From a virus (lineage: Duplodnaviria; Caudoviricetes), in the IMG/VR virus record IMGVR_UViG_3300032134_000002, positions 1-61,321 of that record: a stretch of DNA of 61,321 nt, one strand, 5' to 3'. The stretch's first letter is position 1, and every line of letters starts with the position of its first letter. The notes under the pieces are model-generated. The model saw only the letters and a list, made by a program, of their open reading frames with translations, was not told the DNA's origin and did not search any database. A program made the translations under genes and the position numbers. Below, one piece after another: positions 51 through 54,019 of the stretch.

Positions 51-127
51 GGAGCGGTAGTTCAGCTGGTTAGAATACCGGCCTGTCACGCCGGGGGTCG
101 CGGGTTCAAATCCCGTCCGTTCCGCCA
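51..127 (+). tRNA. tRNA-Asp (GTC), host gene and prophage integration target
   Basis: GGAGCGG/CCGTTCC acceptor stem, CTGTCAC anticodon loop, GGTTCAAATCC T-arm, encoded CCA. Confidence 0.97.
109..127 (+). repeat. attL core AATCCCGTCCGTTCCGCCA
   Basis: Exact copy at 61195-61213; equals the tRNA-Asp 3' end. Confidence 0.95.
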
Positions 128-2833: not shown

Positions 2834-3233
2834 CTGGTTCCTTCTCCATACAGATTTGCGTGAGCCAGTTTGCTATCTCTCTTGCGGAGATTAACGCTGG
2901 CAGTTCTTTGAGGCCGTATCCTTGCAGCCATTGATCCTTCTCAGTGAGAAGTATCCCCCCTTCTGGGCACCCTATAATACAAGCACAGCTTATTGAATGT
3001 CCAGACATTTTTATTAGCCATGCTAATTGTTGTGCAGAGAGGTTTGGTTTTATAAGTGTTGTGTCACGTTTTGGTAGTGCCTTGATCCACTTATACTCCA
3101 CCCAGATGTTGCCTGAAGGCCCTGCGTACCAGCAGTCGGGCACACCACCTGCGTAGTTATCGTGGATTTTCCATTTGTGCATGTCTGCGGGTAAATGGCG
3201 GTGGACGGAGCGGATGTATCCATGCTCGTTCAA
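2799..3233 (-). CDS. PD-(D/E)XK nuclease, VRR-NUC/Holliday-junction-resolvase-like
   Basis: GGVPDC...WVEYK...LSAQQLAWL; TTG start. Confidence 0.8.
   Translation of the reverse strand: MNEHGYIRSVHRHLPADMHKWKIHDNYAGGVPDCWYAGPSGNIWVEYKWIKALPKRDTTLIKPNLSAQQLAWLIKMSGHSISCACIIGCPEGGILLTEKDQWLQGYGLKELPALISAREIANWLTQICMEKEPDDCNQKNKGGN
2974..3003 (-). promoter_or_regulatory. Candidate repressor promoter with operator in spacer
   Basis: Minus strand TGGACA-N18-TATTAT; ACAAGCACAGCTTAT (2979-2993) is one mismatch from the operator consensus. Confidence 0.5.
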
Positions 3234-4034: not shown

Positions 4035-4097
4035 GGGGAATATCCTCTATTTTTGGCACATTGGACGCTGGGCCCCTAATGGGGTAGCGATTAAATT

Positions 4098-4112
4098 ATA
4101 AGCTGTGCTTAT
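4098..4112. promoter_or_regulatory. Palindromic operator copy ATAAGCTGTGCTTAT
   Basis: Intergenic; a partial inverted copy (AAGCACAGC) follows at about 4125-4133. Confidence 0.8.
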
Positions 4113-4139
4113 ATATATGTATACAAGCACAGCCGCTTT

Positions 4140-10829: not shown

Positions 10830-10860
10830 AAGGATATAAGCAGTGCTTATTACTCGTCAA
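10830..10860 (-). promoter_or_regulatory. Primase promoter candidate with operator ATAAGCAGTGCTTAT (10836-10850)
   Basis: Minus strand TTGACG-N18-TATCCT with the palindrome over the spacer. Confidence 0.75.
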
Positions 10861-13165: not shown

Positions 13166-13197
13166 ATGCTTCCCGCTTATATATCTAGCTTTGAATT

Positions 13198-13212
13198 ATA
13201 AGCGGTGCTTAT
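13198..13212. promoter_or_regulatory. Palindromic operator copy ATAAGCGGTGCTTAT
   Basis: Intergenic, upstream of the polymerase unit. Confidence 0.8.
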
Positions 13213-13229
13213 GCTTTCAGGCAAGGCTT

Positions 13230-14683: not shown

Positions 14684-14689
14684 AATATT

Positions 14690-14767
14690 ATTAGCGGTGC
14701 TTATTTATTGTTAATGTACAGGGTGCAATGGGCGTTGGTCAACAGTTATTATATAGGCAGTGCTTAT
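14690..14767. promoter_or_regulatory. Two operator copies (14690-14704 ATTAGCGGTGCTTAT; 14753-14767 ATAGGCAGTGCTTAT)
   Basis: Both lie in the gap upstream of the hydrolase; a minus-strand TATAAT abuts the second. Confidence 0.75.
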
Positions 14768-14770
14768 ATT

Positions 14771-19278: not shown

Positions 19279-19310
19279 ATTATAACTCCTTATATTTAAC
19301 ACTGGCTTCT

Positions 19311-19325
19311 ATTAGCTCAGCTTAT
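19311..19325. promoter_or_regulatory. Palindromic operator copy ATTAGCTCAGCTTAT
   Basis: Upstream of the 19278 start. Confidence 0.75.
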
Positions 19326-19601
19326 ATCCTCGGACAAGAGCTTGCTTATCGTGGCTTCTGAACATTTCACCAAATTGGCGATCTTTCGGTGGCTGAGGCC
19401 ATGCATGTTTAACGTGACTACTGTGCCTCGTGGAATGCGTCGCTGGTGGCATAGCGTCGAGGTGAGTCCGAGCAACTCTGCACGCTGCTTAATGGCAGGG
19501 ACGCTCCGATCTAGGTGCGTGGCGATCTTTGATGCAAGGGCTACACCGTAATGCTCAGTGAGGTACTGCTCATCGCGCGTTGTCCAATGGGCGTAGGTCA
19601 T
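19317..19601 (-). CDS. Double HTH protein
   Basis: HWTTRDE..IATHLDRSVPAI and GLSHRKIANLVKCSEATISK. Confidence 0.7.
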   Translation of the reverse strand: MTYAHWTTRDEQYLTEHYGVALASKIATHLDRSVPAIKQRAELLGLTSTLCHQRRIPRGTVVTLNMHGLSHRKIANLVKCSEATISKLLSEDIS

Positions 19602-21439: not shown

Positions 21440-21477
21440 ATGACCTTATAATAAGCCGTGCTTATAATTTAGGTCAA
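21440..21477. promoter_or_regulatory. Operator ATAAGCCGTGCTTAT (21451-21465) inside overlapping promoter-like elements
   Basis: Minus TTGACC-N18-TATTAT; plus ATGACC-N17-TATAAT; outer TGACCT/AGGTCA inverted repeat. Confidence 0.7.
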
Positions 21478-25730: not shown

Positions 25731-25731
25731 T

Positions 25732-25746
25732 ATAAGCACTGCTAAT
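25732..25746. promoter_or_regulatory. Palindromic operator copy ATAAGCACTGCTAAT
   Basis: At the head of the late arm. Confidence 0.8.
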
Positions 25747-25760
25747 ATATAGTAGGGCTA

Positions 25761-26174: not shown

Positions 26175-26177
26175 TAT

Positions 26178-26192
26178 ATAAGCAGTGCTTAT
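26178..26192. promoter_or_regulatory. Palindromic operator copy ATAAGCAGTGCTTAT
   Basis: Between the endonuclease gene and terS. Confidence 0.8.
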
Positions 26193-26203
26193 AGGCCAAC
26201 ATT

Positions 26204-28498: not shown

Positions 28499-30595
28499 AT
28501 GGCAAAGAAGACGAAGACCGATCCCCTTAAAGAAGGCAAGATTGTAGAAACAAACTGGGCTCGGTACGTTCGGGCACGAGATGCAGGTCATCTCGACTAC
28601 ATAAAGACCGCAATGAAATGCGACCGATACTATCGGGGCGAGCAGTGGGACCAAACAGACATTGATGCGTTGGATTCAGAGGGTCGCCCACACCTAACGA
28701 TCAACACCATTTTGAGTACTGTTAACACCATACTGGGGGAGCAAGCCTCTAAACGTGCTGACACGCAGTTCAAGCCCCGACGTAACTCCTCAGATGAGGT
28801 TGCGGCAGTGCTCACCAAACTGTACATGCAGATTAGTGACAATAACCAGTACGATTATTTGGAAAGTCAGGTGTTTTCTGACGGTGTAATCCAAGATCGT
28901 GGCTATTTTGACATCCGCATGAATTTCGATGACCACATCGAGGGCGAAGTGCAGGTCACGGCGGAAGACCCACTGGACATTTTGCCTGACCCGGACGCCA
29001 AGGACTATGACCCAACCACATGGAATGAGGTGATTAAGACCAAATGGTTGAGTTTAGACGACATTGAGCAGCAATATGGCCAAGAAAAAGCCGACCGACT
29101 GCGCACAATTGCCGAAAATGGCGAGCATTTAGGCCGTGATTCAATGGATGTAGCCGAGGCACGCGACGTGACCTACGGTGACACCATGAATAGTGAGGTA
29201 CGTGGGGGTGATTTTGACGATAAACGCACCCTGAAAGCCGTCCGAGTGGTCGAAAGGCAGCACAGAAAACTGGTAATGACCCCACATTTTGTTGATCCAA
29301 AGACAAAAGACATGCGTCAGGTGCCAGAATCCTGGGACGAGGAGCGCACGGAGCTGTTTGCCAAGGAATATGGCCTAGGCATGCTTAAAAAGCTGATTAA
29401 AAAGGTCCGGTGGACCATCACAGCGGACAATGTTGTGTTGCACGATGACTGGTCACCTTATAAAAACTTCACCATTGTGCCTTACTTCCCTTATTTTAGG
29501 CGTGGTAAGCCATTTGGTATGGTTCGCAACCTGCTTTCGCCTCAAGAACAGCTGAACAAGATCAGTTCACAAGAGCTGCACATTGTGAATACCACAGCGA
29601 ACAGCGGCTGGATCGTGGAAACAGGCTCGTTAAACGGGATGACCTCGGACGATTTGGCAGCGCGCGGTGCCGCAACGGGTCTAGTACTTGAGTATAACCG
29701 TGGTTCTAGTGCTCCAGCGAAGATCTCCCCGAACCAAATCCCAACGGGCCTTGATCGTATTGGTATGAAAGCCGCCAATAACATCAAAGAGATCTCAGGC
29801 GTGTCTGATTCAATGCTGGGTCAGGACAGCGCAGAGGTGTCAGGTGTAGCGATTCAGGCCAAGCAAAATCGTGGTCAGATCCAAATCCAAGTGCCACTGG
29901 ATAATTTAGCCAAGACACGCATGTATGTTGCCCAGAATATCCTGTGCCTAGTGCAATCGTTCTACTCCGAGGAGCGCGTAATCCAGATTACCCGTGACGA
30001 CGACCCAATGAAACCCCGCGAAGAGATCGTGTTGAATCAAATGACGCCAGAAGGCGAAGTGATAAATGATATGACCGTCGGTGAGTATGACGTGGTAATT
30101 GCAACCATGCCAGCGCGTGACAGTTTCGACGAGTCCCAATTCGCGGAAGCCTTGCAACTACGTCAGGTGGGCATCGCGATTCCGGACGACGCCATTATTG
30201 AGTATTCGCATTTGCAGCGTAAAGGCGAATTGGCCAAGCGTATTCGTATGTTGACCGGTGTTGAACAGTCACCTGAACAGCAAGAAGCCGCACAGATGCA
30301 ACAACAAATCCAAATGGAACAGGTCAAGTTGGAGCTACAGAAGCTACAAGCCGAGGCTGCAAACCTTCAGTCGCAAGCCATGCTCAATACGGCGAAGGCA
30401 AACGACTTAGAAACGCAGCCTGACAAAGAAATGGCTGAACTAGAACTTCGTATGGAGCAGAAGCGACAAGAACTGGATGTCCGTATGCAGCTGGCCGAAT
30501 TATCCTCGATCCAAAAACAGCAAGCATCCGAGACCCAAGCAACCACCAAGATCGCGGCAGAGATGATGCGGCTCGGTGGTCAACAAGAGGCTTAA
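28499..30595 (+). CDS. Portal protein (P22/933W-like)
   Basis: YYRGEQW..GRP.LTIN, GMVRNL.SPQ, SGVAIQ; Gln-rich C-terminal coil; follows terL. Confidence 0.9.
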   Translation: MAKKTKTDPLKEGKIVETNWARYVRARDAGHLDYIKTAMKCDRYYRGEQWDQTDIDALDSEGRPHLTINTILSTVNTILGEQASKRADTQFKPRRNSSDEVAAVLTKLYMQISDNNQYDYLESQVFSDGVIQDRGYFDIRMNFDDHIEGEVQVTAEDPLDILPDPDAKDYDPTTWNEVIKTKWLSLDDIEQQYGQEKADRLRTIAENGEHLGRDSMDVAEARDVTYGDTMNSEVRGGDFDDKRTLKAVRVVERQHRKLVMTPHFVDPKTKDMRQVPESWDEERTELFAKEYGLGMLKKLIKKVRWTITADNVVLHDDWSPYKNFTIVPYFPYFRRGKPFGMVRNLLSPQEQLNKISSQELHIVNTTANSGWIVETGSLNGMTSDDLAARGAATGLVLEYNRGSSAPAKISPNQIPTGLDRIGMKAANNIKEISGVSDSMLGQDSAEVSGVAIQAKQNRGQIQIQVPLDNLAKTRMYVAQNILCLVQSFYSEERVIQITRDDDPMKPREEIVLNQMTPEGEVINDMTVGEYDVVIATMPARDSFDESQFAEALQLRQVGIAIPDDAIIEYSHLQRKGELAKRIRMLTGVEQSPEQQEAAQMQQQIQMEQVKLELQKLQAEAANLQSQAMLNTAKANDLETQPDKEMAELELRMEQKRQELDVRMQLAELSSIQKQQASETQATTKIAAEMMRLGGQQEA

Positions 30596-30642: not shown

Positions 30643-31671
30643 ATGCCTAAATCCAATGCAGCAGAAAACTTAGAACACGATGAAAGCTATGACCAATTTG
30701 CAGGAGCCGATGCAATCGAACAGGACGACCTTGAGGGCCTTGATCGCGGTGACGATCCAGAGGCTGTGGTTGAGGAAACCACCGAGGAAGTTGCCGAGGA
30801 AACCACCGAGGAAGTTGCCCAGGAAGTTGCCGAGGTAGAAGCTACTGAGGGCGACGCAGAAGCCGCTGTGAGCGACGAACTCGAGGAAGAGGAAGTCGTA
30901 GAAGAGGACGTAGAAGAGACCGCTGAAGAGACCGCTGAAGAGGCTCCTGAAGAGACCGAGAAGGCCGAGGAAAAGCCACACATGGTGCCGAAGTCCCGTA
31001 TGGACGAAGAGATCGCTCGACGCCGCCAACTGGAGGACCGTTTAGCGAAATTGGAAGAGGCCGCTAAGCCCAAGGAACCAGAAAAACCAGAATTCGATTT
31101 CGATTCTAAGGAAGCTGAGTACATGGAAGCTGTCTTGGATGGTGAGACGGACAAGGCAAAAGCGGTGCGCAAAGAGATTCGTACAGCGGAACGTGAAGCA
31201 ATGGCCAGCGAGCTGCGAAATGACATCAGTAACACAACTAATGTCACCAAACAGCAGTTGGATTTAGATGCTGCCGTGGCGGACATGGTTGCTGCGTACC
31301 CAGTGTTGGACACATCCAGTGACCAGGCCAATCAGGAGATGATCCAGGAAGCCAACGAACTGATGGGAATGTACGCTGATACAGGCATGCCATCGGCAGA
31401 CGCACTGCGTAAAGCGGTTCGTTTAACCTTGGCATCCAATGCGCCGGAATTGCTCCAGCCAAAAGCTGTTGCGACAAAGCCCGCAGCCAAGAAACGCACA
31501 ACGAACGTTGAGCAGAAACTGGAAGCCGCGAATAAGCAGCCAGCGAAATTAGCGGGCGAGAGTGCGACCACACGGACTGAAGAAACGATCGACATCACCA
31601 TGATGACTGATACGGACTTTGACAAGTTGTCTGAAGCCCAAATGAAGCGTTTACGCGGTGATTTCGGCTAA
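30643..31671 (+). CDS. Capsid scaffolding protein
   Basis: Acidic low-complexity N-terminus, MVPKSRMDE, C-terminal FDKLSEAQMKRLRGD; lies between portal and capsid. Confidence 0.8.
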   Translation: MPKSNAAENLEHDESYDQFAGADAIEQDDLEGLDRGDDPEAVVEETTEEVAEETTEEVAQEVAEVEATEGDAEAAVSDELEEEEVVEEDVEETAEETAEEAPEETEKAEEKPHMVPKSRMDEEIARRRQLEDRLAKLEEAAKPKEPEKPEFDFDSKEAEYMEAVLDGETDKAKAVRKEIRTAEREAMASELRNDISNTTNVTKQQLDLDAAVADMVAAYPVLDTSSDQANQEMIQEANELMGMYADTGMPSADALRKAVRLTLASNAPELLQPKAVATKPAAKKRTTNVEQKLEAANKQPAKLAGESATTRTEETIDITMMTDTDFDKLSEAQMKRLRGDFG

Positions 31672-31928
31672 TGCGAGAGGCAATTACGACTGCCTACGTC
31701 GAGGAGCATCCAGAACTGCTGTTTTTCGATGGTTTGGATGAGGCCATTATCGGCGTTAATTTGTGCATGAGTGGTAACCCTAGGGTTGCCTACTCGGCCC
31801 ACAAGATCATGGTATGCCTCGCAGAACGGGGCATGGGGTATGGAGAAGCAAAGGAGTTTATGGAGTTCAACATCGAGAGTGCGTACCTCGGTGAGTACAC
31901 GCCAGCGGTGATTGATGACCTGTTCTAG
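31671..31928 (+). CDS. Small phage protein
   Basis: DGLDEAIIGV..EAKEFMEFNI..AYLGEYTP pattern; TAATG overlap. Confidence 0.7.
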   Translation: MREAITTAYVEEHPELLFFDGLDEAIIGVNLCMSGNPRVAYSAHKIMVCLAERGMGYGEAKEFMEFNIESAYLGEYTPAVIDDLF

Positions 31929-31952
31929 CGCGGTCATCGTTTCCCTTAATAT

Positions 31953-31967
31953 ATAAGCTGTGCTAAT
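31953..31967. promoter_or_regulatory. Palindromic operator copy ATAAGCTGTGCTAAT
   Basis: 5' boundary of the capsid leader. Confidence 0.8.
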
Positions 31968-31988
31968 ATATACGCAAAGGCCCGTCTT

Positions 31989-32162
31989 ACAGTACGACAA
32001 CTGTCCAGGCCTAAGTTTTTCGACTGCCACACGATACGTGGTAGCCCTCGCCTAGCTCAATAAGGCCATGAGTTCGTCCCTCTTTAAAAGGTCGCTATTT
32101 CGTTCGGACACGACACGTCCAACACATGCAGTGGTTGTCGCCCCTGCTTGATGAATGGCGAC
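31989..32162 (+). ncRNA. Structured capsid-gene leader with three ACGAYA-loop hairpins
   Basis: Hairpins at 31989-32004, 32024-32044 and 32102-32123, plus a GTCGCC/GGCGAC stem at 32137-32162. Confidence 0.6.
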
Positions 32163-32166
32163 TTTT

Positions 32167-32181
32167 ATAAGCAGCACTAAT
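32167..32181. promoter_or_regulatory. Operator variant ATAAGCAGCACTAAT
   Basis: One mismatch; just upstream of the capsid SD. Confidence 0.65.
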
Positions 32182-32203
32182 ATTATCTAAGAGGTAAATA
32201 CTC

Positions 32204-33313
32204 ATGGCATTAACTAATTTTGCCGCTCTGACTTCAGAGCAAAAGACCGTATGGTCCCGTGATTTTTGGAAAGCAGCTCGAAATGCTTCCTTCATCAACC
32301 AATTCGCAGGCACTGGCTCTAACGCCATGGTTCAGCGTATCACTGACTTAACCAAGAGTGAGAAGGGCGCACGCGCTGTTTTAACTCTACTTGCCGATTT
32401 GTCTGGCGACGGTGTTGTAGGCGACTACACATTGGAAGGCAATGAAGAAGCGCTATCTAGCTCTGACATCATTGTTCGCATTGACCAGTTGCGTAATGCA
32501 AACCGTTTGGCTGGCCGTTTGGCTGACCAGAAGTCCATTGTTAATTTCCGTGAAGCCTCTAAGGACGCCTTGGCGTACTGGATCGCTGACCGTATGGACC
32601 AAGTAGCATTCTTAACCTTGTCTGGCTTGGCATACACCAAGAAGAACAACGGTGGTGCTCGTGCTGTAAATGCAACTGGCCAAAACTTAGGTGACATGGA
32701 ATACGCCGGTGACGTAACTGCACCAACCAGCCAGCGTCATTTGATCGCTAAAGCTGATGGTACTGTTGCTACAGGCAACTTAACCGCTTCTGACATCATG
32801 GGCTACAAGACAATTGTAAACCTTAAAGCCTACGCCAAAGACCACTATATCCGTGGTGTACGTGGTAAAGGTGGTGAAGAGATGTTCCACATGTTCGTAA
32901 CCCCACAAGGCATGGCTGACTTGAAGTTAGACTCTGACTTCTTGGCCAACGTTCGTAACGCAGGTGTTCGAGGTTCAGGTAACGGTTTGTTCTCTGGTAC
33001 TTCAAGCGTAATGGTAGACGGCGTGATGGTTCACGAATTCCGCCATGTATACGACACCTCTGGTGAAGCGTCTGGTTCTAAGTTTGGTGCTTCTGGCACA
33101 GTAGACGGCCAACGCGCTTTGTTCTGTGGTGCACAGGCATTGGCATTAGCTGACATTAACGATGCAGACTGGGTTGAAGAAACCTATGACTACGGTAACC
33201 AGCATGGTATCTCCGTAGGTAAGATTCTAGGCTTCCGTAAGCCTAAGTACACCAGCATGGTAACTGGCGACACCCAAGATTTTGGTGTGATCGCATTAGA
33301 CACCGCGCTGTAA
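32204..33313 (+). CDS. Major capsid protein (N4-gp56/DUF4043-like)
   Basis: DGVVGDYTLEGNEEAL, IDQLRNA, RALFCGAQAL and DYGNQHGI motifs; strongly biased codons. Confidence 0.9.
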   Translation: MALTNFAALTSEQKTVWSRDFWKAARNASFINQFAGTGSNAMVQRITDLTKSEKGARAVLTLLADLSGDGVVGDYTLEGNEEALSSSDIIVRIDQLRNANRLAGRLADQKSIVNFREASKDALAYWIADRMDQVAFLTLSGLAYTKKNNGGARAVNATGQNLGDMEYAGDVTAPTSQRHLIAKADGTVATGNLTASDIMGYKTIVNLKAYAKDHYIRGVRGKGGEEMFHMFVTPQGMADLKLDSDFLANVRNAGVRGSGNGLFSGTSSVMVDGVMVHEFRHVYDTSGEASGSKFGASGTVDGQRALFCGAQALALADINDADWVEETYDYGNQHGISVGKILGFRKPKYTSMVTGDTQDFGVIALDTAL

Positions 33314-33329
33314 CCCAATAGGGCCTCTT

Positions 33330-33361
33330 CCCCCGGCCTAGCGTAGCGTCGGGGGCTTTTT
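33330..33361 (+). terminator. Probable terminator after capsid gene
   Basis: CCCCCGGC/GTCGGGGG stem then CTTTTT. Confidence 0.55.
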
Positions 33362-33373
33362 GGAGTTTTTATT

Positions 33374-33748
33374 ATGTTGATTTCTGATAAGGCACTGCAC
33401 ATTGCTTCTCTAAGCGGACAATCCGTTTGGTTCGAGGCTGGCGTAGCGCAAGAAGTCCCCCCACTTATAGTGGACGAATGTATTGCTGCGGGTGCATACC
33501 CAGTCGGCAAACAACCACAGACAAAAAAATCAGTTGCTACATCTGCAACGGTTGAAGTAGATGAAGTCTCAGATGAGGATCAAGCTATGGAAATCATGGC
33601 CGCAATTGAGCAACTGATGGATAAAGGTGACAACAAAGCCTTTTCAAAAAATGGTGATCCCAGAGTCCGCAGTATCGAGAAGATACTGGGCTACGACATC
33701 ACCTCTCAGCAACGGGATACAGCTTGGGCTGAACTAAGTGAGGCGTAA
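33374..33748 (+). CDS. Hypothetical head-associated protein
   Basis: Position after capsid; GGAG SD. Confidence 0.7.
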   Translation: MLISDKALHIASLSGQSVWFEAGVAQEVPPLIVDECIAAGAYPVGKQPQTKKSVATSATVEVDEVSDEDQAMEIMAAIEQLMDKGDNKAFSKNGDPRVRSIEKILGYDITSQQRDTAWAELSEA

Positions 33749-38943: not shown

Positions 38944-41900
38944 TGAGCGGCTTCGACATAGACCAACAGATAGCTGACCTTGAAAAGCAACTAGCCCTTG
39001 AAACAAAAAGCAACGGTGCTATTGGCGACATTGATCTGTTGGCGGCTGACCTAGAAGCAGGGCAAGTAATGACTGACCAAAACCTGTCTGCCATAGAGGC
39101 GGGTTTTGAGGCGGGTCGCAAAGGTCTCATTTCCTCTAAGCATACAGCAGCAGCGGCCTTTAATTATTTAGCAGGGGATGAAGCTACAGCACTCGAGCAC
39201 CTTAAAAAAGCTGAACCGATTGACGGTCAGATTGGTCGTTTATCCAGCCAATATGCCAGTTTTGAAGAGTTTATTGAAGACCCTGGTTTCAGTAACTTTG
39301 CAGAGATGTCTGTGTTCAAGCTGGGGCAAGCTGTACCTTCAGCCATTGAAAGTTTCGCCGCCGGTACAGCTGGCGCAGCAGTAGGTTTCACGTCAGGCGT
39401 GGGCGTGGGGGCAATCCCGAGTTTCGTAGGCGGGGTGGTGGCCAAAGGTCAGATGAAACGGATGGTGCGCGACGCGATCATCGATTACTCAAAAGGCAAT
39501 GCATCTAAGGAAGCTGTGGACGTTGCACAACAGGCGCTCAAATTAGCCGCAATAAAGAGCTTCACAAAAAAATCGGCTGTGGTCGGCGCGATGAGCTCCG
39601 GTTATTACCAAGGTGTTTCGTCCTCTTTTAAAGAATCTATGGTGACCGGCCAAGATCCAACTGATGCCGCAGGCATTGCAGCGTTGATCGGTGTCCCATT
39701 CGCGGTTGCGGACGTAGCGCCTGAAATACTTTTTGTAAAATCACTAGCTAAGCTATCGAAACTGAAGAAAGCTACATCACCGTTAAAGGTATTCGCAGGC
39801 TCTGTTGTGAGACAAGGTTCTGCGGAGACACTTGCCGAGGGCAGTCAAGAGTCCATGATTGTCGCGCAGCGCTTTCAGCAAGACCCAAATTACGACAAAG
39901 CCCGCGCTGTAATGCGAATCGCGGATTCGGCCTATTCAGGCCTTGTTGCAGGCGGCGCATTGGGTGGCGGTTCAGGCACAATCAAAGCCACCATCGCATC
40001 TGCACGGAATATTTTGGACAGTACTCGTCAGCAGATCCATGAAAAAACGGCCCCCGATGCTGAGTCGACAATCAATAATTTCGAGTTCGACGACCTTTCC
40101 CCAGAAGGTATGGCTACCGTCCCGTTGAACGAACTGCTGTACGCCGTCCAAGATACGCAACAAGGGCAGACGTTAGAAGCTGACCCTATTACCCAGGCAA
40201 ACGCAGCCGCTGCGATACAAGAGCTTAATAGGCGCGCCGAGGAGATGGGCCAAAACCGATTCCAAGAGCTTGTACGGAGGGAGTTAGCACAAGGTACTGA
40301 CCCCCAAGAAGACCGCCTTTCCGAAATCGAACAGGAGGTGTTCAACGAGACTGACCTTCCAGAAGCGGGTGCCACTGAGCAGCGCACAGCGCACGGAGAG
40401 CTAGAAGAACAGCCTCAAGGATTCGAGGAAAGGCTACTAGGGAAGAATAAAAAAGGCGATGGGTACGTCCCCGGCAGTCGTGCGATCCGAACTCGCATGA
40501 AGAAACTTCAAGAGGAAAACCCGGGTCGCCAGTACCGTCTAGTACAAAAAGACGGGGCTGAGTTCATCGAAGAGGTCATAGAGAGCAGTTTAGATGTCAG
40601 TGAAATCGTTAATGAAGGCACTATTAAAGCGCGATCCGGCACACAGCAAGGCGGTAAAGACCGTACGCTACAAGCCACTGACCCCCAAGGCAAAAAAATA
40701 AGCCTATCCCCAGCGGAACTTGCGCACGCAGGCATGCGAGCGAACAACAAGGACAAGGCCAATGCGTCTCACATGACGTACCCGCAGTTACTCATGTCCG
40801 GTTTTTTAAGGATGATTCAGGAGTTGGCGGATCGGGGTTTCGTAATCGACCTCGATGCATTACCAGCCAGCACTGTCATCGCGAAAGCTAACGGTAAAAC
40901 GTACACATGGCAACGCCTCAAAAAAGCATGGGCCGCCAGGAAATACACCGAAGAGGGCTCCTCTTTCGATGGTAAGGCTGCGAAAGAGGAGCGCCTCATT
41001 GAAACTGAGGATAGCGTCGTCGAGACGATGCGCCAAATCGAGCAGCTGGAACGGGAATTGGACGCCAGCGCAGAAACTGGCGCTCAGCAAGAAACTAGCG
41101 GTCAGCAAGAAATGCAGCTGGAACGGGAATTGGACGCCAGCGCAGAAACTAGTGGTCAGCAAGAAATGCAGCTGTTGTTTGATGGGCAGAGTATCAACGA
41201 TCAAATTGCCGCAGCAGAAAATGAGCTGGCAGAATTGGACAGCTCCCGCGAAGATCAGGCGAGCGAACTGGAGCGGAACGAAGAAGTAGAGACTGACACC
41301 ATTGCGATGGGTGAGGCTCAGGCTGCGCAGGATGCTAAAAAAGCCCGCATCCTAGATGAGGACGGGAACCCCATTACATACCCAACGCGCAGAGGCACCA
41401 AACCCAAACAACAACGAAAAACAACACCCAAACAAAAACAGGAGGTATTCTCAAAAGAAGAAATTGAGGAAAATGAGGAAGCCCTAAAAGCAGAGATGCG
41501 TTTAGAAGGCATGAAGCCAATAAGGGAACAAATTGAGCAGCTGGAACGGGAATTGGACGCCAGCGCAGAAACTAGCGGTCAGCAAGAAATACAGCCATTG
41601 TTTGATGGGCAGAGTATCAACGATCAAATTGCCGCAGCAGAAAATGAGCTGGCAGAAGTAGCAAAAGCTAGGCAGAAGCCAAAGCCAAAGCCAAAAGTGA
41701 AAGCAAAAGCACAGCCTAAGCCTAAGCCAAAGCCAAAGCCAAAGCCAAAAGTGAAAGCAAAAGCACAGCCTAAGCCTAAGCCTAAGCCTAAGCCTAAGTC
41801 GAAGCTGCACAAACGCGACATGGGCAAAGTGTCCGTGTGGGGGACATTCCCCGATTTGTTTGCAAATTACGCCAATGCAATCATTTCGGCAGTCGGCATA

Positions 41901-44453
41901 AAGACCAAGGTCCATATAATTTGGGCTGAAGACGTTGAGGCTTTTAACGAACAAAATCCAGGTGCCATCGAAGGCGCAGTTATAAAGCATGCCCTTGAGG
42001 GTAAGCAAAAAGCATTTGTTGCCCAGCGAGATGGTAATGCGTACATCTTCATATCTAAAAACTTAGACAGCCCATACCGCCAGGCCATAACCGCAGCGAT
42101 TTTGGGGCACGAGCTCGGGCACGTTTTGTTTAAAGAGAGTATCAATAGCTTGTCAGAGGCCAACCTCGCTAGACTGAAAAAGGCCTACCAAGAGCAACTT
42201 AAAACTAAGAGCAATAAACAGTACACAAATGATGAAGTGGGTTTTGAAGAATGGTATGCAGATCAGGTGGCTGTATGGGCCGAGAAGCAGACCAAGACCC
42301 CAAGTAAATTCACTGAGGCCCATTTCAAACGAGTTGCCGCAAAGATGCGTGAGTTGTGGCGCAAGTCGCGGCAGTTTGTTAGGAGAAATCTAAAAGGGCT
42401 GAACGAAAAGCAGAGGCAGGCTGTTAGGACTAATAAGGACCGTTTCACTCTCGAAGAAACCTTTGAACAATACATGGGTGCTGTTTTAGAGAGTGTCCAC
42501 GGGCAGGAATCGACTGAACAAACGTCCAATGACACAGAGTTCCAGCGCACCTTTGACAGACTACAAGGCACGCCCGTTCTGACCAAGTTACGCGAGGCCA
42601 TGCAACAAGTGTGGGACCTCGGACTCGTTGATGGTTTGCTGAAAGTTATCCTCTCCGCTGACCAATACGCACGGGTGCGTCTAGGAAAATATGGCCCAGC
42701 GTTCGCCAACCTATTTTACCACCGCACCCAAACGTCGAACGATACAAAAGGCGACATGCTCAACAAGCAACGCCATGCCCTAGACAAATGGAATGCACAG
42801 TTTGCCGAGATACTAGGTGAAGATAAAGAGCACGCAAACAAAGTTCTTGCAGAAATGCAGGCAGGCGTAAATATAGACCAGTCTATAGACCCCAAAATGC
42901 GGAAACATCTAGCTGACTTCTTCGAGCGTTTCCACCGCGACTACCTAAAAAAACGTATCCCAACAATAGGGAAGATACGAAACTACTTCCCTATTATATA
43001 TAACACGCAAGCTATTCAGGCAAACCAAACTGCGTTCATCGCCGAACTGAAAAAAGGGGGGCTTACCCAGCAAGAAGCCCAAACCGTAACGCGAACAATG
43101 CTCGAAAACGACGGGGCTTTTATAGAGGACATACCGCACCACGAATTGTTCGGCCCTCAGTTCAATGCCAAGATGCGGCGCAAGCTGAAAAATATGGACA
43201 CCAAGGCATTACAGGACTTAGGTTTCTACCAAAACCCCATGGTGGCAGTACAACTCTACCTAAAACAGGCGACCAAACACGCCGAGTACAATGTCATTAA
43301 GGATGAGGCAGAGGCGCTCATCAACAAAATGCCACCAAAGCAACGCGCACAGGCCCGTAAAATAGTGCTCGGGTATATGGGCCGTTTGGGGGCACACATT
43401 GACCCTACGTGGAACAAATACCAGTCGTACATCGCTGCGTTGCAGTTTGCCACGACCTTACTATTTTCAGTTGTCGCATCGTTTACCGACCTCGGCAACC
43501 CGATTGTTCGGGCAAAAGACATGGACGGTTTTAAAAGTGTACTGAAGAACTGGCGCGCATACATGAGCAAGCAAAGCCGCGAAGAGATGATCGAATTTGC
43601 AGAGCGCATCGGAGCTGCATCACGCGAGGCTGTTCAAGAGGCTTTGCACCAAGCGTACAACTCAGAGTTCATTGATCCGGGCGCACGCAAATGGTCTGAT
43701 AAGTATTTCAAGATGATTGGTTTGGAGCAGTGGACCCGAATGACCCGAATTATCGCAGCTAATATAGGGCGTGATTTTATAGCGAACCACGCCAAAAAAG
43801 CAGCAGCGGGTGATGTACGGAGTGCCCGTTATTTGAGGGAGTTGGGCCTTGATCATGAGACTGCGACTAAGGGGTATAACCGCGAAACTGACACGATAGA
43901 CCTAGCAACGCCGGAAGGCGAAGCAGTACAGGAGGCCATCCTCAAGTTCGTGGATGAATCCATCATCAGACCAAACCCCGCACAGCGTCCTACTTGGGCG
44001 AGTGACCCACATTACATGTTGGTATGGCAGCTGAAAAGTTTCTTCTATACGTTTGGCCAGATCATAGTCGGTGGTGTTGCACGAGAGATGCAATCGCGAT
44101 GGGCAGAAGGGGATAGGGCGAAAGCAGCGTTGCCAGCCATGATTATGTTCGCCGCATTGTTACCGCTAGCAGCGATCGCACTCCAAACGCGCGAAATGAT
44201 TAAAGGGGCATTCAAGGACGACGATCGAGAGGACCCAGAACAAGAGACCCTGGATTACTTATTCGAGCTAGTAGACCGTGCCGGTATTTTAGGCCCAATG
44301 TCCGTTATTAAAATGATGAACGACGCAGGGGACTACGGGCGTAGCGGAGTGGTTACTGCACTGGGCCCAACGGCGGGAACACTTGAAACATTCTTCACTG
44401 GAGATATGGGCGACCTAGCAAAACGTCTAACCCCCATTTACTCCCAATTATAA
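38943..44453 (+). CDS. Large internal virion protein with zincin-like HExxH domain and internal repeats
   Basis: 1836 aa; Gly/Ala-rich N-terminus, GHELGH and EEWYAD, PK tracts, C-terminal hydrophobic helix. Confidence 0.7.
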   Translation: MSGFDIDQQIADLEKQLALETKSNGAIGDIDLLAADLEAGQVMTDQNLSAIEAGFEAGRKGLISSKHTAAAAFNYLAGDEATALEHLKKAEPIDGQIGRLSSQYASFEEFIEDPGFSNFAEMSVFKLGQAVPSAIESFAAGTAGAAVGFTSGVGVGAIPSFVGGVVAKGQMKRMVRDAIIDYSKGNASKEAVDVAQQALKLAAIKSFTKKSAVVGAMSSGYYQGVSSSFKESMVTGQDPTDAAGIAALIGVPFAVADVAPEILFVKSLAKLSKLKKATSPLKVFAGSVVRQGSAETLAEGSQESMIVAQRFQQDPNYDKARAVMRIADSAYSGLVAGGALGGGSGTIKATIASARNILDSTRQQIHEKTAPDAESTINNFEFDDLSPEGMATVPLNELLYAVQDTQQGQTLEADPITQANAAAAIQELNRRAEEMGQNRFQELVRRELAQGTDPQEDRLSEIEQEVFNETDLPEAGATEQRTAHGELEEQPQGFEERLLGKNKKGDGYVPGSRAIRTRMKKLQEENPGRQYRLVQKDGAEFIEEVIESSLDVSEIVNEGTIKARSGTQQGGKDRTLQATDPQGKKISLSPAELAHAGMRANNKDKANASHMTYPQLLMSGFLRMIQELADRGFVIDLDALPASTVIAKANGKTYTWQRLKKAWAARKYTEEGSSFDGKAAKEERLIETEDSVVETMRQIEQLERELDASAETGAQQETSGQQEMQLERELDASAETSGQQEMQLLFDGQSINDQIAAAENELAELDSSREDQASELERNEEVETDTIAMGEAQAAQDAKKARILDEDGNPITYPTRRGTKPKQQRKTTPKQKQEVFSKEEIEENEEALKAEMRLEGMKPIREQIEQLERELDASAETSGQQEIQPLFDGQSINDQIAAAENELAEVAKARQKPKPKPKVKAKAQPKPKPKPKPKPKVKAKAQPKPKPKPKPKSKLHKRDMGKVSVWGTFPDLFANYANAIISAVGIKTKVHIIWAEDVEAFNEQNPGAIEGAVIKHALEGKQKAFVAQRDGNAYIFISKNLDSPYRQAITAAILGHELGHVLFKESINSLSEANLARLKKAYQEQLKTKSNKQYTNDEVGFEEWYADQVAVWAEKQTKTPSKFTEAHFKRVAAKMRELWRKSRQFVRRNLKGLNEKQRQAVRTNKDRFTLEETFEQYMGAVLESVHGQESTEQTSNDTEFQRTFDRLQGTPVLTKLREAMQQVWDLGLVDGLLKVILSADQYARVRLGKYGPAFANLFYHRTQTSNDTKGDMLNKQRHALDKWNAQFAEILGEDKEHANKVLAEMQAGVNIDQSIDPKMRKHLADFFERFHRDYLKKRIPTIGKIRNYFPIIYNTQAIQANQTAFIAELKKGGLTQQEAQTVTRTMLENDGAFIEDIPHHELFGPQFNAKMRRKLKNMDTKALQDLGFYQNPMVAVQLYLKQATKHAEYNVIKDEAEALINKMPPKQRAQARKIVLGYMGRLGAHIDPTWNKYQSYIAALQFATTLLFSVVASFTDLGNPIVRAKDMDGFKSVLKNWRAYMSKQSREEMIEFAERIGAASREAVQEALHQAYNSEFIDPGARKWSDKYFKMIGLEQWTRMTRIIAANIGRDFIANHAKKAAAGDVRSARYLRELGLDHETATKGYNRETDTIDLATPEGEAVQEAILKFVDESIIRPNPAQRPTWASDPHYMLVWQLKSFFYTFGQIIVGGVAREMQSRWAEGDRAKAALPAMIMFAALLPLAAIALQTREMIKGAFKDDDREDPEQETLDYLFELVDRAGILGPMSVIKMMNDAGDYGRSGVVTALGPTAGTLETFFTGDMGDLAKRLTPIYSQL

Positions 44454-44464
44454 GCACCGCTTAT
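44450..44464. promoter_or_regulatory. Palindromic operator copy ATAAGCACCGCTTAT
   Basis: Upstream of an extended -10 TGATATACT (44472-44480) heading the tail genes. Confidence 0.8.
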
Positions 44465-44526
44465 ATAAAAGTGATATACTGGTCTGGCATGTCAATGCTG
44501 AGAACAACCCTTTAACTGAGGTCAAA

Positions 44527-46194: not shown

Positions 46195-49100
46195 ATGGCC
46201 ATTCAGTTCACCAATGACGCGTCGACGTTTTTAGCCGCGAATATTTCCGCCGCCGCTACGTCCATTACGGTGGCGGATGCGTCGTCGTTCCCTGCACTTG
46301 GGGCAACGGATCACACCTATATTACGCTCTCGACGCCGGATAATTCGGCCAAAGAGATTGTCAAATGTACGGCCATCTCAGGCACAACGCTCACCGTCAT
46401 ACGTGCCCAGGAAGGCACGACGGCGCAGTCGTTCACTACGTCGGATCGCGCACAGATTCGCATCACTGCGCAATTGTTCCGCGACGTGATGGCCGCGTTT
46501 GCGTCCCTGGACACCTTTAAGTACACCGCGACGGCTGGGCAGACCACTTTTAGTGGCTCGGATACCAACGCAGCAACGCTCACGTACACCTTAAACAACA
46601 TTATTGTGATTCTGAACGGTATCAGCCTTGACGCTAGCGACTTCACTGCCACCAGTGGCACAAGTATCGTGCTGGCCACAGGGGCGGCTGCGGACGATGA
46701 ACTGGTTGTCGTCGCCTTCAAGTCGTTCACGTTAGCCGATCATTACGATAAGACTGCCTCCGATGCGAAGTACCGCACACTGACAGGCGATCAAAGCCAC
46801 GGCGATAACGTCAAGGCTAAGTTCGGTAATTCTGATGATCTGGCCATATTCCATGATGGGTCTAATAGCTATATAACTGACACTACTGGCGGCAACTTCT
46901 TCATTAATGACGATGGTGCTGGCTATCTTATGATGAAGGGCAGTGACCTTTACTTTAGAAACCCAAGTAACGTTGACATGATTCATGCCCAGTCTGGTGG
47001 GTATGTAAAGCTATACCACAACGGCAGCGAAAAACTAGAAACCACAAGTTCTGGTGTCGATATAAGCGGCACAGTCACGGCAGTAGGCGGCGCTGCAAGC
47101 AATAATGATGATGCGAATATTATGACACTTAACGCATCAGAACACGCTAGGTTATTAATAGATACATCTTCTACTAGCGGCCATAGAGCAACTTTAGCTT
47201 TAGAATCAAACGGGAATGAAACAACACTTTCAAATACAGGAGCAAATTCATATCTTACTGCCGATACAGGTCAGTTGTTCCTTAAAAGTGCCGCAAGCAA
47301 TGTTTGGTTGAATGGTACTGAGTGTGGTATGACCAATACTGATGACACTGAATATTTGATTAGAGCTACTTCAAATGGCTCAGTTAAACTTTACTATGAC
47401 GGTGTTAAGAAACTAGAAACCACAAGTTCTGGTGTCGATATAAGCGGCACAGTCACGGCTGATGGTTTGACTGTGGCAGGAAGTGACTACCAGCTTAGAA
47501 TTAATCAGGGTTCTAATCAGCCTTACTACATACGTCATGCCTCTGATAACAGTTTGCGGATGCACCTTAATGGGACAGGAGACTATGTAACCATCGACTC
47601 TAGCGGTAACGTGGGTATTGGTGTCACGCCTGAGAGTTGGAATACTGGGGGTTATGTCACAGGTTTTGATATGGGAGGCGGCGCTATATTTTCCTATAAA
47701 AATGGGGCTAACCTTCAATTTAACCTACTAAGTAATTCATATTACTCAGGCACTGGGTATAAGTATTCTAACAGTGGATCAGCAGCTGCCCATGAAATAT
47801 CTAATGGGGGGCATTATTTCCAAGTAGCCCCAAGCGGCACAGCAGACTCAGCGATTAGCTGGACTACTGCGATGACTATTGATAACAGCGGTAACGTGCT
47901 GGTGGGTACTACCGCCACTGACACAGCCGCAGTTGGTTTTAGATATAGGGCAAGTTTAGATGCTATCTCATCGGTATCTGATGGAGGAATATCTGCATAT
48001 TTTGGTAGACGTAGTTCTGATGGCGATATTGTAGCCTTCCGCAAAAATGATGCAATTGTAGGTAGTATTGGTACTACTGGCGGCGAAATGTACATTGGCA
48101 GTGGCGATTGCGCACTTAGATTTAATGATGGTGGCGATCAAATACGAGTTTCAACAAGTACTGGTTCAAACAGGGACGGTGCTATTGACTTAGGCTTTAC
48201 AGATTCTCGCTTCAAAGACGGCCATTTCTCAGGCACAGTGAATGCTGGTGGTCTGGTGGTTAATGCAGGCGCTTCCAACGTAGTTGCCACTTTTGAAAGC
48301 ACCGATAGTGTTGGCGCAATCGAACTAAAAGACTCGTCAGGCACTTGTGAACTGAGTACCTCAAATAGCGGTTTCAGTGTACAACCAAACGGAGGGGCAA
48401 GCGTACTAACTGTTGACTCTAGCGGTAATATGGATATTAGCGGCACTACTGGTCAAATATCTAGTGCATCTACAGACGAAGGAGCAGTTTTACGATTATC
48501 AAATAAAAAATCATTTGAAAATGGTTATGATGGAAACGCTTTTGTTGGTGGGATTGAATTTTATACTCAGGATAGCTCAGAAGGGGGCCCACAAGTATTT
48601 GGCGCTATTAAACAAAGACAATTAAATTATTATAATAATCAAGCAATGTGCTTTTTTACAAGCACATATAACGGAAGCTTAACAGAACGCCTCAGAATCG
48701 ACTCCAGCGGTAACTCCATATTTGGTGGTGGCTCACTGTACGGCTCTAACACTGTTTCTATAACGGCTGCGAGTGGTATAGATCAACGTTGGCAGTCTGG
48801 CGTAGCACACAGCAATTTACAAAATGCTATTTCAGGTGTGTCAAATGGATTCCAAACGGAGCAGGATAGTTCCAATAATCTCACATACACTTTCCACACT
48901 GGAGCTAACGCAGTTGGTTTAAAACTCGACTCCAGCGGTAATCTCGGCATAGGTGTCACGCCTGAGAGTTGGCATACTGGTTACAATGCTTTGCAGATTG
49001 GCGGTAGGGGTTTCCTTGCTGCCCACACAGGTAGTGACTGCTACTTAGGGCAGAATGCCTATTACAATAATGGCTGGAAATATATAGACACCGGCAATGC

Positions 49101-49827
49101 TGCCTCATTTATCCAGCAATCGGGCGGTTTGATTCAACATTTTGTAGCCCCAAGCGGCACAGCAGACTCAGCGATAAGCTGGACTACTGCGATGACGATT
49201 GATAATAGTGGTCGAGTTATAATGGGTACAAGTACCACTGGCAATCATCCGAGCTGGTTTGGTAGTGGCACAAGAACTGGTTTGTGTATTCAAGGTGGTG
49301 GCGGTGGCCCTCACGTTCTTTATCTAAAGAATAATGACACTAGCGGTGGGGCTAATATGATTCAGTTCGTAGACGGCTCTGGTGATATTTGTGGTGCTAT
49401 TAACTCTAATGCCACATCAAATACCACATCTTATTCAACAACCTCAGACTACCGTGCTAAAGAAAACGTCACACCTATGACTAATGCATCTGAACGCTTG
49501 ATGCAGCTAAAGCCAAGCAACTTTAATTTTATTACTGACCCTGAAACCTTATGGGATGGTTTCTTGGCCCATGAAGCGCAAGCGGTTGTACCTGAGAGCG
49601 TTGTAGGTGACAAAGATGCCATGCGTGACGAAGAGTATGAAGTCACTCCAGCTATTGAAGCCACCTTTGATGATGAAGGTGAGGAACTTACAGCAGCCGT
49701 TGATGCAGTTATGGGTACTCGTTCAGTGCCCGATATGCAGGGCATAGATCAGAGCAAGTTGGTTCCATTATTAACGGCGGCTCTGCAAGAAGCACTGGCC
49801 CGAATTGAAGCATTGGAGAATAAATAA
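46195..49827 (+). CDS. Tail fibre 1 with C-terminal S74 intramolecular chaperone
   Basis: Repeated IDSSGN modules; TSDYRAKENV..GFLAHE..IDQSKLVPLL.ALQE. Confidence 0.9.
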   Translation: MAIQFTNDASTFLAANISAAATSITVADASSFPALGATDHTYITLSTPDNSAKEIVKCTAISGTTLTVIRAQEGTTAQSFTTSDRAQIRITAQLFRDVMAAFASLDTFKYTATAGQTTFSGSDTNAATLTYTLNNIIVILNGISLDASDFTATSGTSIVLATGAAADDELVVVAFKSFTLADHYDKTASDAKYRTLTGDQSHGDNVKAKFGNSDDLAIFHDGSNSYITDTTGGNFFINDDGAGYLMMKGSDLYFRNPSNVDMIHAQSGGYVKLYHNGSEKLETTSSGVDISGTVTAVGGAASNNDDANIMTLNASEHARLLIDTSSTSGHRATLALESNGNETTLSNTGANSYLTADTGQLFLKSAASNVWLNGTECGMTNTDDTEYLIRATSNGSVKLYYDGVKKLETTSSGVDISGTVTADGLTVAGSDYQLRINQGSNQPYYIRHASDNSLRMHLNGTGDYVTIDSSGNVGIGVTPESWNTGGYVTGFDMGGGAIFSYKNGANLQFNLLSNSYYSGTGYKYSNSGSAAAHEISNGGHYFQVAPSGTADSAISWTTAMTIDNSGNVLVGTTATDTAAVGFRYRASLDAISSVSDGGISAYFGRRSSDGDIVAFRKNDAIVGSIGTTGGEMYIGSGDCALRFNDGGDQIRVSTSTGSNRDGAIDLGFTDSRFKDGHFSGTVNAGGLVVNAGASNVVATFESTDSVGAIELKDSSGTCELSTSNSGFSVQPNGGASVLTVDSSGNMDISGTTGQISSASTDEGAVLRLSNKKSFENGYDGNAFVGGIEFYTQDSSEGGPQVFGAIKQRQLNYYNNQAMCFFTSTYNGSLTERLRIDSSGNSIFGGGSLYGSNTVSITAASGIDQRWQSGVAHSNLQNAISGVSNGFQTEQDSSNNLTYTFHTGANAVGLKLDSSGNLGIGVTPESWHTGYNALQIGGRGFLAAHTGSDCYLGQNAYYNNGWKYIDTGNAASFIQQSGGLIQHFVAPSGTADSAISWTTAMTIDNSGRVIMGTSTTGNHPSWFGSGTRTGLCIQGGGGGPHVLYLKNNDTSGGANMIQFVDGSGDICGAINSNATSNTTSYSTTSDYRAKENVTPMTNASERLMQLKPSNFNFITDPETLWDGFLAHEAQAVVPESVVGDKDAMRDEEYEVTPAIEATFDDEGEELTAAVDAVMGTRSVPDMQGIDQSKLVPLLTAALQEALARIEALENK

Positions 49828-53754: not shown

Positions 53755-53768
53755 CTTTGCTATATAAT

Positions 53769-53783
53769 ATAAGCAGTGCTAAT
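53769..53783. promoter_or_regulatory. Palindromic operator copy ATAAGCAGTGCTAAT
   Basis: Immediately after TATAAT (53763-53768), upstream of the endolysin unit. Confidence 0.8.
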
Positions 53784-53797
53784 ACATCGGAACAGTT

Positions 53798-54019
53798 ATG
53801 CAAGACCTAGAAAAGCGGGTGACAAAGGTTGAGTTCGCAATTGATGCCCACGCAGATCAGCTGGCTGAACTGCATGCTGTGTCAAAAGAGTTGCACACCA
53901 CGCTCAGTGGTATTCAGGCAACCCTCATGCAGATCAAATGGATCGCCATAGGGGCATTGTTAGTTGTGCTCATCAGCGACAGCGCGCTTGGAGCACAACT
54001 ATTGAAGATGCTAGCGTGA
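53798..54019 (+). CDS. Small coiled-coil plus TM lysis-associated protein
   Basis: N-terminal coil, C-terminal hydrophobic helix; GTGA overlap with endolysin. Confidence 0.6.
   Translation: MQDLEKRVTKVEFAIDAHADQLAELHAVSKELHTTLSGIQATLMQIKWIAIGALLVVLISDSALGAQLLKMLA

Follow-up and report, generated by a model that had tools for sequence, protein, structure and literature searches.

A conserved, strand-specific structured RNA of about 190 nucleotides directly upstream of a phage major head protein gene

Why should the tightly packed late arm of a phage genome leave its longest gap directly in front of the gene for its major head protein? The question is raised by the IMG/VR virus record IMGVR_UViG_3300032134_000002, a marine, temperate tailed phage (Caudoviricetes) whose complete record of 61,321 bases was analyzed and is referred to here as the window. 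The initial annotation, made from the sequence alone, had called this gap of roughly 250 bp unusually long and had described in it three hairpins with ACGAYA-type loops, a further stem, a boxA-like word and two bracketing operators, which it interpreted as a cis-regulatory RNA or a small decoy RNA controlling capsid output. The gap measures 275 nt (31929-32203) and is indeed the longest of the plus-strand arm, with the runner-up at 183 nt. All three hairpins are present on the plus strand at the exact coordinates given (31989, 32024 and 32106), as is the further stem. We find that the gap encodes a real RNA of about 190 nt that is structured, conserved, strand-specific and linked to the capsid gene. 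What stands of the proposed cis-regulatory RNA is thus a structured RNA on the capsid-sense strand that is tied to the capsid gene; its regulatory action is a matter of likelihood.

Relatives were collected by a capsid-protein search that returned 491 IMG/VR relatives, of which the best 80 were kept, plus 12 in bacterial genomes and metagenome-assembled genomes; three further scans with distant capsids added loci. The contigs of Motiliproteus coralliicola and of two Vreelandella species we read as prophages. Among the unique 270-nt leaders of the first scan, 36 of 38 contain at least two hairpins with ACGAYA-type loops, the exceptions being L077 and the cultured phage KPP25. Below the constant loop, the stems are as different as ACAGU/ACUGU, GCCGGA/UCUGGC, UCUGUAA/UUACAGA and AUCUAA/UUAGAU. 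To quantify this, 43 leaders, 40 of them distinct, were put into a plain MAFFT alignment, which was evaluated at hairpins H1, H4 and H5 (the third ACGAYA-type hairpin of the initial annotation) and at two candidate helices between loops and their flanks. Paired cells amount to 91.6% compared with 75.8% in shuffles, both sides change in 17 of the 23 tested pairs, and the covariation score is 0.394 versus 0.122, with none of 500 shuffles reaching any of these measures. As a control, sliding the partners by one to three columns reduced pairing to 31-46%. Compensatory change in this alignment extends to all six pairs of H1, all four of H5 and four of the five of H4, and the stems include G-U pairs (for example, nine UG and six GU). 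The initial annotation had described a conserved loop on unrelated stems and had named stems that fail to covary in relatives as what would speak against it; they covary.

The contrast between variable stems and constant loops is just as apparent in the larger set of 85 unique RNAs aligned to the covariance model described below. H1 occurs with 47 distinct stems, yet 66 of the 85 have ACGAUA or ACGACA as its loop, and H5 has 17 distinct stems with ACGAUAC or ACGACAC in 80. The H4 loop has the form UCGNN in 81. Two to three hairpins with a common ACGAYA(C) loop on unrelated stems, with a UCGNN-loop hairpin between them, are the hallmark of the RNA. A YCGU word, nearly invariant, stands 5' of each ACGA-loop hairpin, and numerous unpaired positions are invariant across the 61 unique sequences of the largest sister clade. 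Three distant relatives (L082, L144 and L224) have ACGUWA or ACGUYAC in place of ACGAYA in all of their loops, in concert within one leader; the joint switch of all three L082 loops to ACGUWA would fit one shared partner.

Neither the loop word nor its placement in a hairpin is enriched in the window: ACGAYA has 60 matches where 53.6 are expected, and it lies within a stem of at least four pairs seven times, compared with 6.0 +/- 2.4 in shuffles. None of 1000 mononucleotide shuffles placed three of these hairpins on one strand inside 130 nt, and 37 of 1000 placed two. In addition, the plus strand of the leader is predicted to fold more stably than its shuffled versions (-58.2 kcal/mol, z -2.56), while the minus strand is not (z -0.49). 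One more hairpinned ACGACA, in the portal gene (29052-29069), was rejected as a chance occurrence, having three G-U pairs and no model match.

A covariance model built from the alignment has one match in the 61-kb record, in the capsid gap. When 99 loci (504 kb, both strands) were searched, the model produced 57 matches at E<=1, with 43 at E<=2.4e-13 and 14 weak ones, and every one of them lies on the capsid-sense strand immediately upstream of the capsid start. The remaining 42 loci, KPP25 among them, have no model match. Linkage to the capsid gene was also assessed from the opposite direction with a DNA pattern taken from the 3' module, which was scanned over IMG/VR without reference to any protein and was found in at least 119 contigs. 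From 80 pattern loci listed, three with less than 250 nt of downstream DNA were left out. Among the matches listed, a capsid homologue begins 40-160 nt downstream on the same strand in 74 of the 77 evaluable loci; one further locus has the capsid gene 33 nt downstream, and two have no capsid gene. These two also have no full model match.

The elements of the RNA and of its surroundings are collected in Table 1. In the window clade (12 unique sequences), RNAalifold supports the outer helix H0, H2 and a long-range helix that closes the predicted 3' domain. The H0 pairs 10-38 and 11-37 change on both sides from C-G to U-A, so that AGGCC/GGCCU becomes AGGCU/AGCCU or AGGUU/AACCU, and four pairs of H2 change on both sides. 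The ACGAYAC form of H2 is confined to this clade; the largest sister clade (clade D) shows a CGUG-UCGCA-CACG hairpin there, which covaries (CGUG/CACG, CGGC/GCCG, CGCC/GGCG). H3 is invariant in the window clade, while its sister-clade counterpart changes from CGCC/GGCG to CGUC/GACG in 2 of 61 sequences. A conserved CGUCUU stands 5' of H1, and UUUCGUUC precedes H5. In the 3' domain, the predicted long-range helix competes with the local stem 32137-32162, which is invariant in the window clade, and neither competing helix shows compensatory change among the 12 unique sequences of that clade. The local hairpin may form in place of the long-range helix or, with its UUUU run, may act as a weak terminator; a terminator scan limited to loops of up to 8 nt did not call it, its loop being 14 nt. 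Sister sequences have GUUU where the window has UUUU.

Table 1. Positions of the leader RNA, its helices and the neighboring features in the window
Feature	Position	Strand	Description
tRNA-Asp gene	51-127		Left end of record
Tyrosine-integrase gene	239-1435		Left end, adjoins tRNA-Asp gene
Portal gene	28499-30595		Upstream of leader
Acidic coiled-coil-like protein, 342 residues	30643-31671		Upstream of leader
Open reading frame, 85 residues	31671-31928		Directly before gap
Dyad copy 1	31952-31968	+	TATAAGC-TGT-GCTAATA; overlaps extended -10 (TG 31961-31962, TAATAT 31964-31969)
Structured leader RNA	31972-32167	+	Covariance model, 110.7 bits, E 1e-29, sole match in window
Outer helix H0	31978-31982 / 32008-32012	+	AGGCC / GGCCT, around H1; RNAalifold
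H1	31989-31993, 31994-31999, 32000-32004	+	ACAGT, loop ACGACA, ACTGT; 5-bp stem
H2	32024-32030, 32031-32037, 32038-32044	+	CTGCCAC, loop ACGATAC, GTGGTAG; 7-bp stem, one G-U
H3	32050-32052 / 32064-32066	+	GCC / GGC, long loop; RNAalifold
H4	32070-32082	+	GAG/CUC, loop UUCGUCC
Predicted 3' domain	32090-32163	+	Helix 32090-32099/32154-32163 around H5 and a GCAG/CUGC hairpin; minimum free energy fold, RNAalifold
H5	32106-32109, 32110-32116, 32117-32120	+	GGAC, loop ACGACAC, GTCC
Local hairpin	32137-32166	+	GTCGCC 32137-32142 / GGCGAC 32157-32162, 14-nt loop, then TTTT
Dyad copy 2	32166-32182	+	TATAAGC-AGC-ACTAATA; TAATAT 32178-32183, without TG
Shine-Dalgarno sequence and capsid start codon	32189-32206	+	AAGAGG 32189-32194, ATG 32204; read directly
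Major head protein gene, 369 residues	32204-33313	+	phrog_334, E 5.5e-91
Putative intrinsic terminator	33330-33361	+	CCCCCG, 14-nt loop, CGGGGG, CTTTTT; right after capsid stop, read directly

The two bracketing operators of the initial annotation are real copies of a dyad, although their interpretation has changed. The 17-bp dyad TATAAGC-N3-GCTTATA has 16 sites in the window at up to one mismatch, and a looser version has 14 matches where 0.85 are expected. It holds a -10-like hexamer, with TG standing one base 5' of it in most copies, so the copy upstream of the leader (copy 1) is best read as a promoter. We consider copy 1 most likely to be the capsid promoter (P1), possibly with an operator built into it, and predict the 5' end of the leader RNA near 31976 from the position of its -10 hexamer. 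At the place of copy 1, TTGNNN-N16-18-TANNNT is present in 61 of 73 unique upstream sequences of relatives, ending 11-13 nt before the first conserved word of the RNA and keeping the dyad character TATTAG...CTAATA; the RNA therefore most likely starts at the 5' end of a transcript. Copy 2, whose center lies about 214 bp from that of copy 1, is a possible second promoter (P2) or operator and is restricted to the window clade and the 87-90% clade.

The 14 further copies of the dyad (1846-1862, 3012-3028, 4097-4113, 10435-10451, 10835-10851, 13197-13213, 14689-14705, 14752-14768, 19310-19326, 21450-21466, 25731-25747, 26177-26193, 44449-44465 and 53768-53784) are mostly intergenic, with 12 in the minus-strand arm and 2 in the late arm. 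One of the latter stands at the start of the second-longest late-arm gap (53755-53937, 183 nt), which leaves a leader of about 150 nt before the next open reading frame (ORF). A homologue of CI-like transcriptional repressors is encoded at 2129-2833 on the minus strand (phrog_4, E 6e-10). Two dyad copies, at 2978-2994 and 3012-3028, lie immediately upstream of its gene, and the homologue is a candidate for the protein that binds the dyad. Because this homologue adjoins further copies, the dyad may serve both as promoter core and as operator. Multi-copy repressor operators are known from temperate phages such as phiC31, with its conserved inverted repeats, and mycobacteriophage L5, with its stoperators. 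The dyad resembles them as a short conserved site repeated at many putative promoters across a temperate genome with a CI-like repressor gene beside some copies, but differs in that its motif contains the -10-like hexamer, so it may simply mark a class of phage promoters.

At the other end, the putative terminator follows directly 3' of the capsid gene, which would make the capsid gene its own transcription unit. A marine metatranscriptome contributes one contig of 1467 nt that spans 31920-33391 without mismatches, from the leader through the capsid gene to just past the terminator. As transcript evidence, this is a weak hint, for the library may contain DNA. Metatranscriptome runs X1-X3 leave parts of the late arm uncovered, and the small shares of X2 and X3 are uninformative either way.

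Having inferred its promoter, transcript ends, action in cis and binding factor, we propose as the probable explanation of the gap that a monocistronic capsid mRNA begins there with a structured 5' leader, which tunes capsid output in cis through a factor that binds the repeated loops. The leader, about 190 nt at roughly 31976-32167, would head a stand-alone capsid transcription unit that runs from the dyad-embedded promoter (31952-31969) through the leader RNA and the major head gene (32204-33313) to the terminator (33330-33361). The RNA would act in cis on the capsid message, with the repeated loops recognized by a single factor acting in trans, most likely a protein that binds them as a multimer; alternatively, the loops might form tertiary contacts. 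Occupancy would alter how efficiently the capsid mRNA is translated or how stable it is, and would thereby set capsid dosage.

A cis role is favored mainly because a conserved, sensor-like core with varied downstream platforms resembles cis-regulatory leaders. Between RNA and capsid gene, the window clade has the second dyad copy, while the sister clade has a GC-rich covarying hairpin at that position followed by an AU-rich spacer. A U run is present in some members of that clade only, and some of its leaders have an 11-bp hairpin and UUUUU after the RNA. Leaders of the 70-71% clade have nothing between the RNA and the ribosome-binding site. The Vreelandella-type prophages have a shorter core of a hairpin, a UCGYN hairpin and another hairpin, followed by a conserved AUGAC that opens an ORF of 6-11 codons and by alternative helices GCGAG/CCUCGC/GCGAGG, in which GCGAGG is the capsid Shine-Dalgarno sequence; this arrangement looks like a switch of the leader-peptide type. 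Vreelandella-type leaders (L088, L089, L090, L096-L105 and L107) lie about 100 nt before the capsid ATG and contain a 9-10-bp helix, GCCUaGCGAG / CUCGCaGGC, with GCGAG repeated within the capsid Shine-Dalgarno sequence.

Several observations weigh against the proposed cis-acting leader. The cultured relatives KPP25, Acidovorax phage AP1 and Aeromonas phage phiA008 have no recognizable leader RNA, either by reading or by the model with filters off, and the RNA is therefore dispensable for this type of capsid. The genes that flank the RNA vary by clade: the window has the 85-residue ORF, the sister clade has small basic ORFs, and other clades have the scaffold gene directly. Pairing between leader and ribosome-binding site is not conserved in the window clade. 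Finally, in that clade copy 2 with its -10 hexamer and the UUUU run stand between the RNA and the capsid ribosome-binding site; the capsid mRNA could therefore start 3' of the RNA, and the RNA itself might be a small RNA of its own. Such a stand-alone RNA, transcribed from P1 as far as the UUUU run (32163-32166), would have its effect in trans, perhaps by serving an RNA-binding regulator as a decoy or sponge, with the capsid gene transcribed from P2. We think this quite unlikely, even though copy 2 lies between RNA and Shine-Dalgarno sequence in the 87-90% clade as well, and a helix followed by UUUU or, in sister sequences, GUUU closes the RNA 3' end, and an 11-bp hairpin with UUUUU follows the RNA in some sister-clade leaders. 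P2 has neither TG nor a -35 element and is absent outside the clade, the U run is short and not conserved, and most relatives have no room for a promoter between RNA and ribosome-binding site. An invariable position just ahead of the capsid gene, in sense orientation, is what cis elements typically show, and the metatranscriptome contig that covers both RNA and capsid gene points, if weakly, in the same direction.

Evidence on pairing between loops and their flanks is mixed. It bears on the unlikely alternative that the loops are parts of a self-contained tertiary fold, with each ACGA pairing with its own YCGU in an H-type pseudoknot or with the UCGNN loops, so that the RNA would be a riboswitch-like sensor of a small ligand or a nuclease-resistant 5' stabilizer. 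UCGU, complementary to ACGA, is nearly invariant beside both hairpins, and two unique sequences (L077 and L083) change flank and loop jointly from UCGU/ACGA to CUUG/CAAG. The flank-loop pair beside H1 is U-A in 55, U-G in 5 and C-G in 1 of 61 sequences, but the outer pair is A-A in 17 of the 61, and the flanks are left unadjusted in the ACGUWA-loop leaders (L082 and L144) and in the Vreelandella-type family. L056 has a plain UCGU...ACGA hairpin in place of its third module, and in a second candidate tertiary contact the H3 loop covaries with the strand 5' of H4 (GCA:UGC to ACA:UGU via G-U intermediates). The often invariant unpaired positions of the sister clade would also suit a tertiary fold, while the gene context suggests no ligand and a plain stabilizer would need no conserved loop sequences. 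Highly improbable, by comparison, is a feature at the DNA level, in which the dyads are all that matters, with filler between them, or in which single-stranded DNA hairpins mark an origin or packaging site. The dyads are real, occur in many copies with the CI-like repressor gene next to some of them, and have centers at the spacing given above. However, the stems keep pairing through G-U states, which are A-C on the other strand, the spacer is conserved far beyond what filler requires, most relatives carry the feature without a second dyad, and the model matches are strand-specific and always in capsid sense.

It is doubtful that the ACGAYA hairpins are operators for unassembled capsid or scaffolding protein, or parts of a ligand-sensing, riboswitch-like fold. 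If they were such operators, capsid synthesis would be coupled to head assembly. Either version would place a dosage sensor inside the capsid message of a double-stranded DNA (dsDNA) phage, with expression platforms that differ by lineage: the second promoter in the window, the hairpin in the sister clade, and the short upstream ORF with a Shine-Dalgarno-masking helix in the Vreelandella type.

Translational operators bound by phage proteins include the coat-protein hairpins of MS2 and PP7, the RegA and gp32 operators of T4, and the site of Mu Com on the mom mRNA. As in these systems, the loop and not the stem is conserved, a structural or late gene carries the element in its leader, and the element would be expected to set protein dosage. 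Unlike them, the leader hairpins lie 85-210 nt upstream of the start codon and not over it, and two to three copies are embedded in a 190-nt multi-helix RNA of a temperate dsDNA phage. No ACGAYAC hairpin was found at the ribosome-binding site, where a coat-protein operator would be expected: the nearest in the window ends 84 nt before the ATG, and loops start 60-110 nt upstream in relatives. The nearest look-alike is the guanidine-II riboswitch (mini-ykkC, RF01068), in which two loops pair through their C and G. It shares with the leader its tandem hairpins, unrelated stems and an ACGR word in the loop. The leader loops, in contrast, have 6-7 nt (ACGAYA or ACGAYAC) and are not ACGR tetraloops, the leader is a much larger RNA with extra conserved helices, and the downstream gene encodes the major head protein in the 74 of 77 evaluable loci among the matches listed, not a guanidine-handling or efflux function.

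The lambda nut site, with boxA and boxB, and HK022 put are also promoter-proximal structured phage RNAs, and as with these, the window has a boxA-like word and a terminator-like hairpin follows the leader in some relatives. The word noted by the initial annotation is present as CCTCTTTAAA at 32078-32087 but is not conserved, varying in relatives to CTCTCTAAAA, CTCTTAAAAA, CTCTAAAAAA and CTCGTAAAT. We rejected it as a boxA since it consists of the 3' arm of H4 and an A-rich linker, which vary freely. No boxB with a GNRA-like pentaloop was seen among the leader loops, which have the forms ACGAYA(C) or UCGNN, and no search was aimed at N-like proteins. Unlike at nut and put, read-through of a long operon is not an evident purpose, because the capsid gene has its own terminator directly after it. 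The leader does not resemble a phi29-type pRNA, with no Rfam match and an RNA that always abuts the capsid gene in sense orientation, or a T-box leader, again with no Rfam match and with a loop triplet GAY that tolerates GAA and GUU.

Three more readings of parts of the leader were considered and dropped. CCUCUU at 32079-32084 complements the capsid AAGAGG as an anti-Shine-Dalgarno sequence would, but the 87-90% clade keeps CCCUCU with AGGUG as its Shine-Dalgarno sequence. A short leader ORF (ATG 32126, 14 codons) has no Shine-Dalgarno sequence, and its ATG is ACG in L015 and L017. Loops acting as Asp codons (GAY) that pair with tRNA-Asp are not favored, as position 5 is A or the triplet is GUU or GUA in several lineages and the invariant C at loop position 2 would be left unexplained.

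The initial annotation had proposed an Rfam search, and no family matches the leader. Rfam 15 searched over 31000-33000 at E<=10 gave three chance-level matches, none inside 31953-32203, and nine divergent relatives at E<=1 gave two chance-level matches, both elsewhere. A literature search by loop sequence returned primers and microRNAs only and nothing relevant. A survey of IMG/VR published in 2023 lists 10,006 candidate structured RNAs of viruses (PMC10690425). It reports that some of them are consistently placed ahead of genes for phage structural proteins, with five upstream of a major capsid family named PHA00201 (PMC10690425). The leader RNA may or may not be among these candidates.

The leader RNA is a candidate new family for RNA catalogs, present in well over a hundred contigs of marine phages and in prophages that culturable bacteria carry. 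Related leaders in Motiliproteus coralliicola and Vreelandella prophages make its role testable in the laboratory. In dsDNA phages, the large and precise dosage of capsid relative to scaffold and portal is mostly ascribed to the strength of promoters and ribosome-binding sites. A conserved, folded capsid leader suggests an added layer of post-transcriptional control.

The tRNA-Asp gene and the adjoining tyrosine-integrase gene mark the phage as temperate. Its minus-strand arm holds replication and regulation genes, and the plus-strand late arm begins at the large terminase gene. Among cultured phages, the Pseudomonas KPP25 group comes closest, sharing 57% identity in the capsid protein; a BLASTN search of the leader against cultured phages matched in the capsid part alone, to this group. 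We read the acidic 342-residue protein encoded upstream of the leader as the scaffold; it ends in ...LRGDFG, as does the product of the gene before the capsid gene in KPP25 and other relatives. Between scaffold gene and leader, the sister-clade contig L038 (1711-2735) has three to four very basic, Lys/Arg-rich ORFs of 59-94 residues that are absent from the window. Elsewhere in the late arm, a repeat of about 30-40 nt (...CACAAGTTCTGGTGTCGATATAAGCGGCA...) occurs at 47040-47080, 47418-47458, 50123-50163 and 50432-50472, within two large tail-fiber-like ORFs (46195-49827 and 49827-52730), and the hexamer CCTAAG is arranged in tandem at 41767-41798 (CTTAGG on the minus strand) inside an ORF of 1836 residues.

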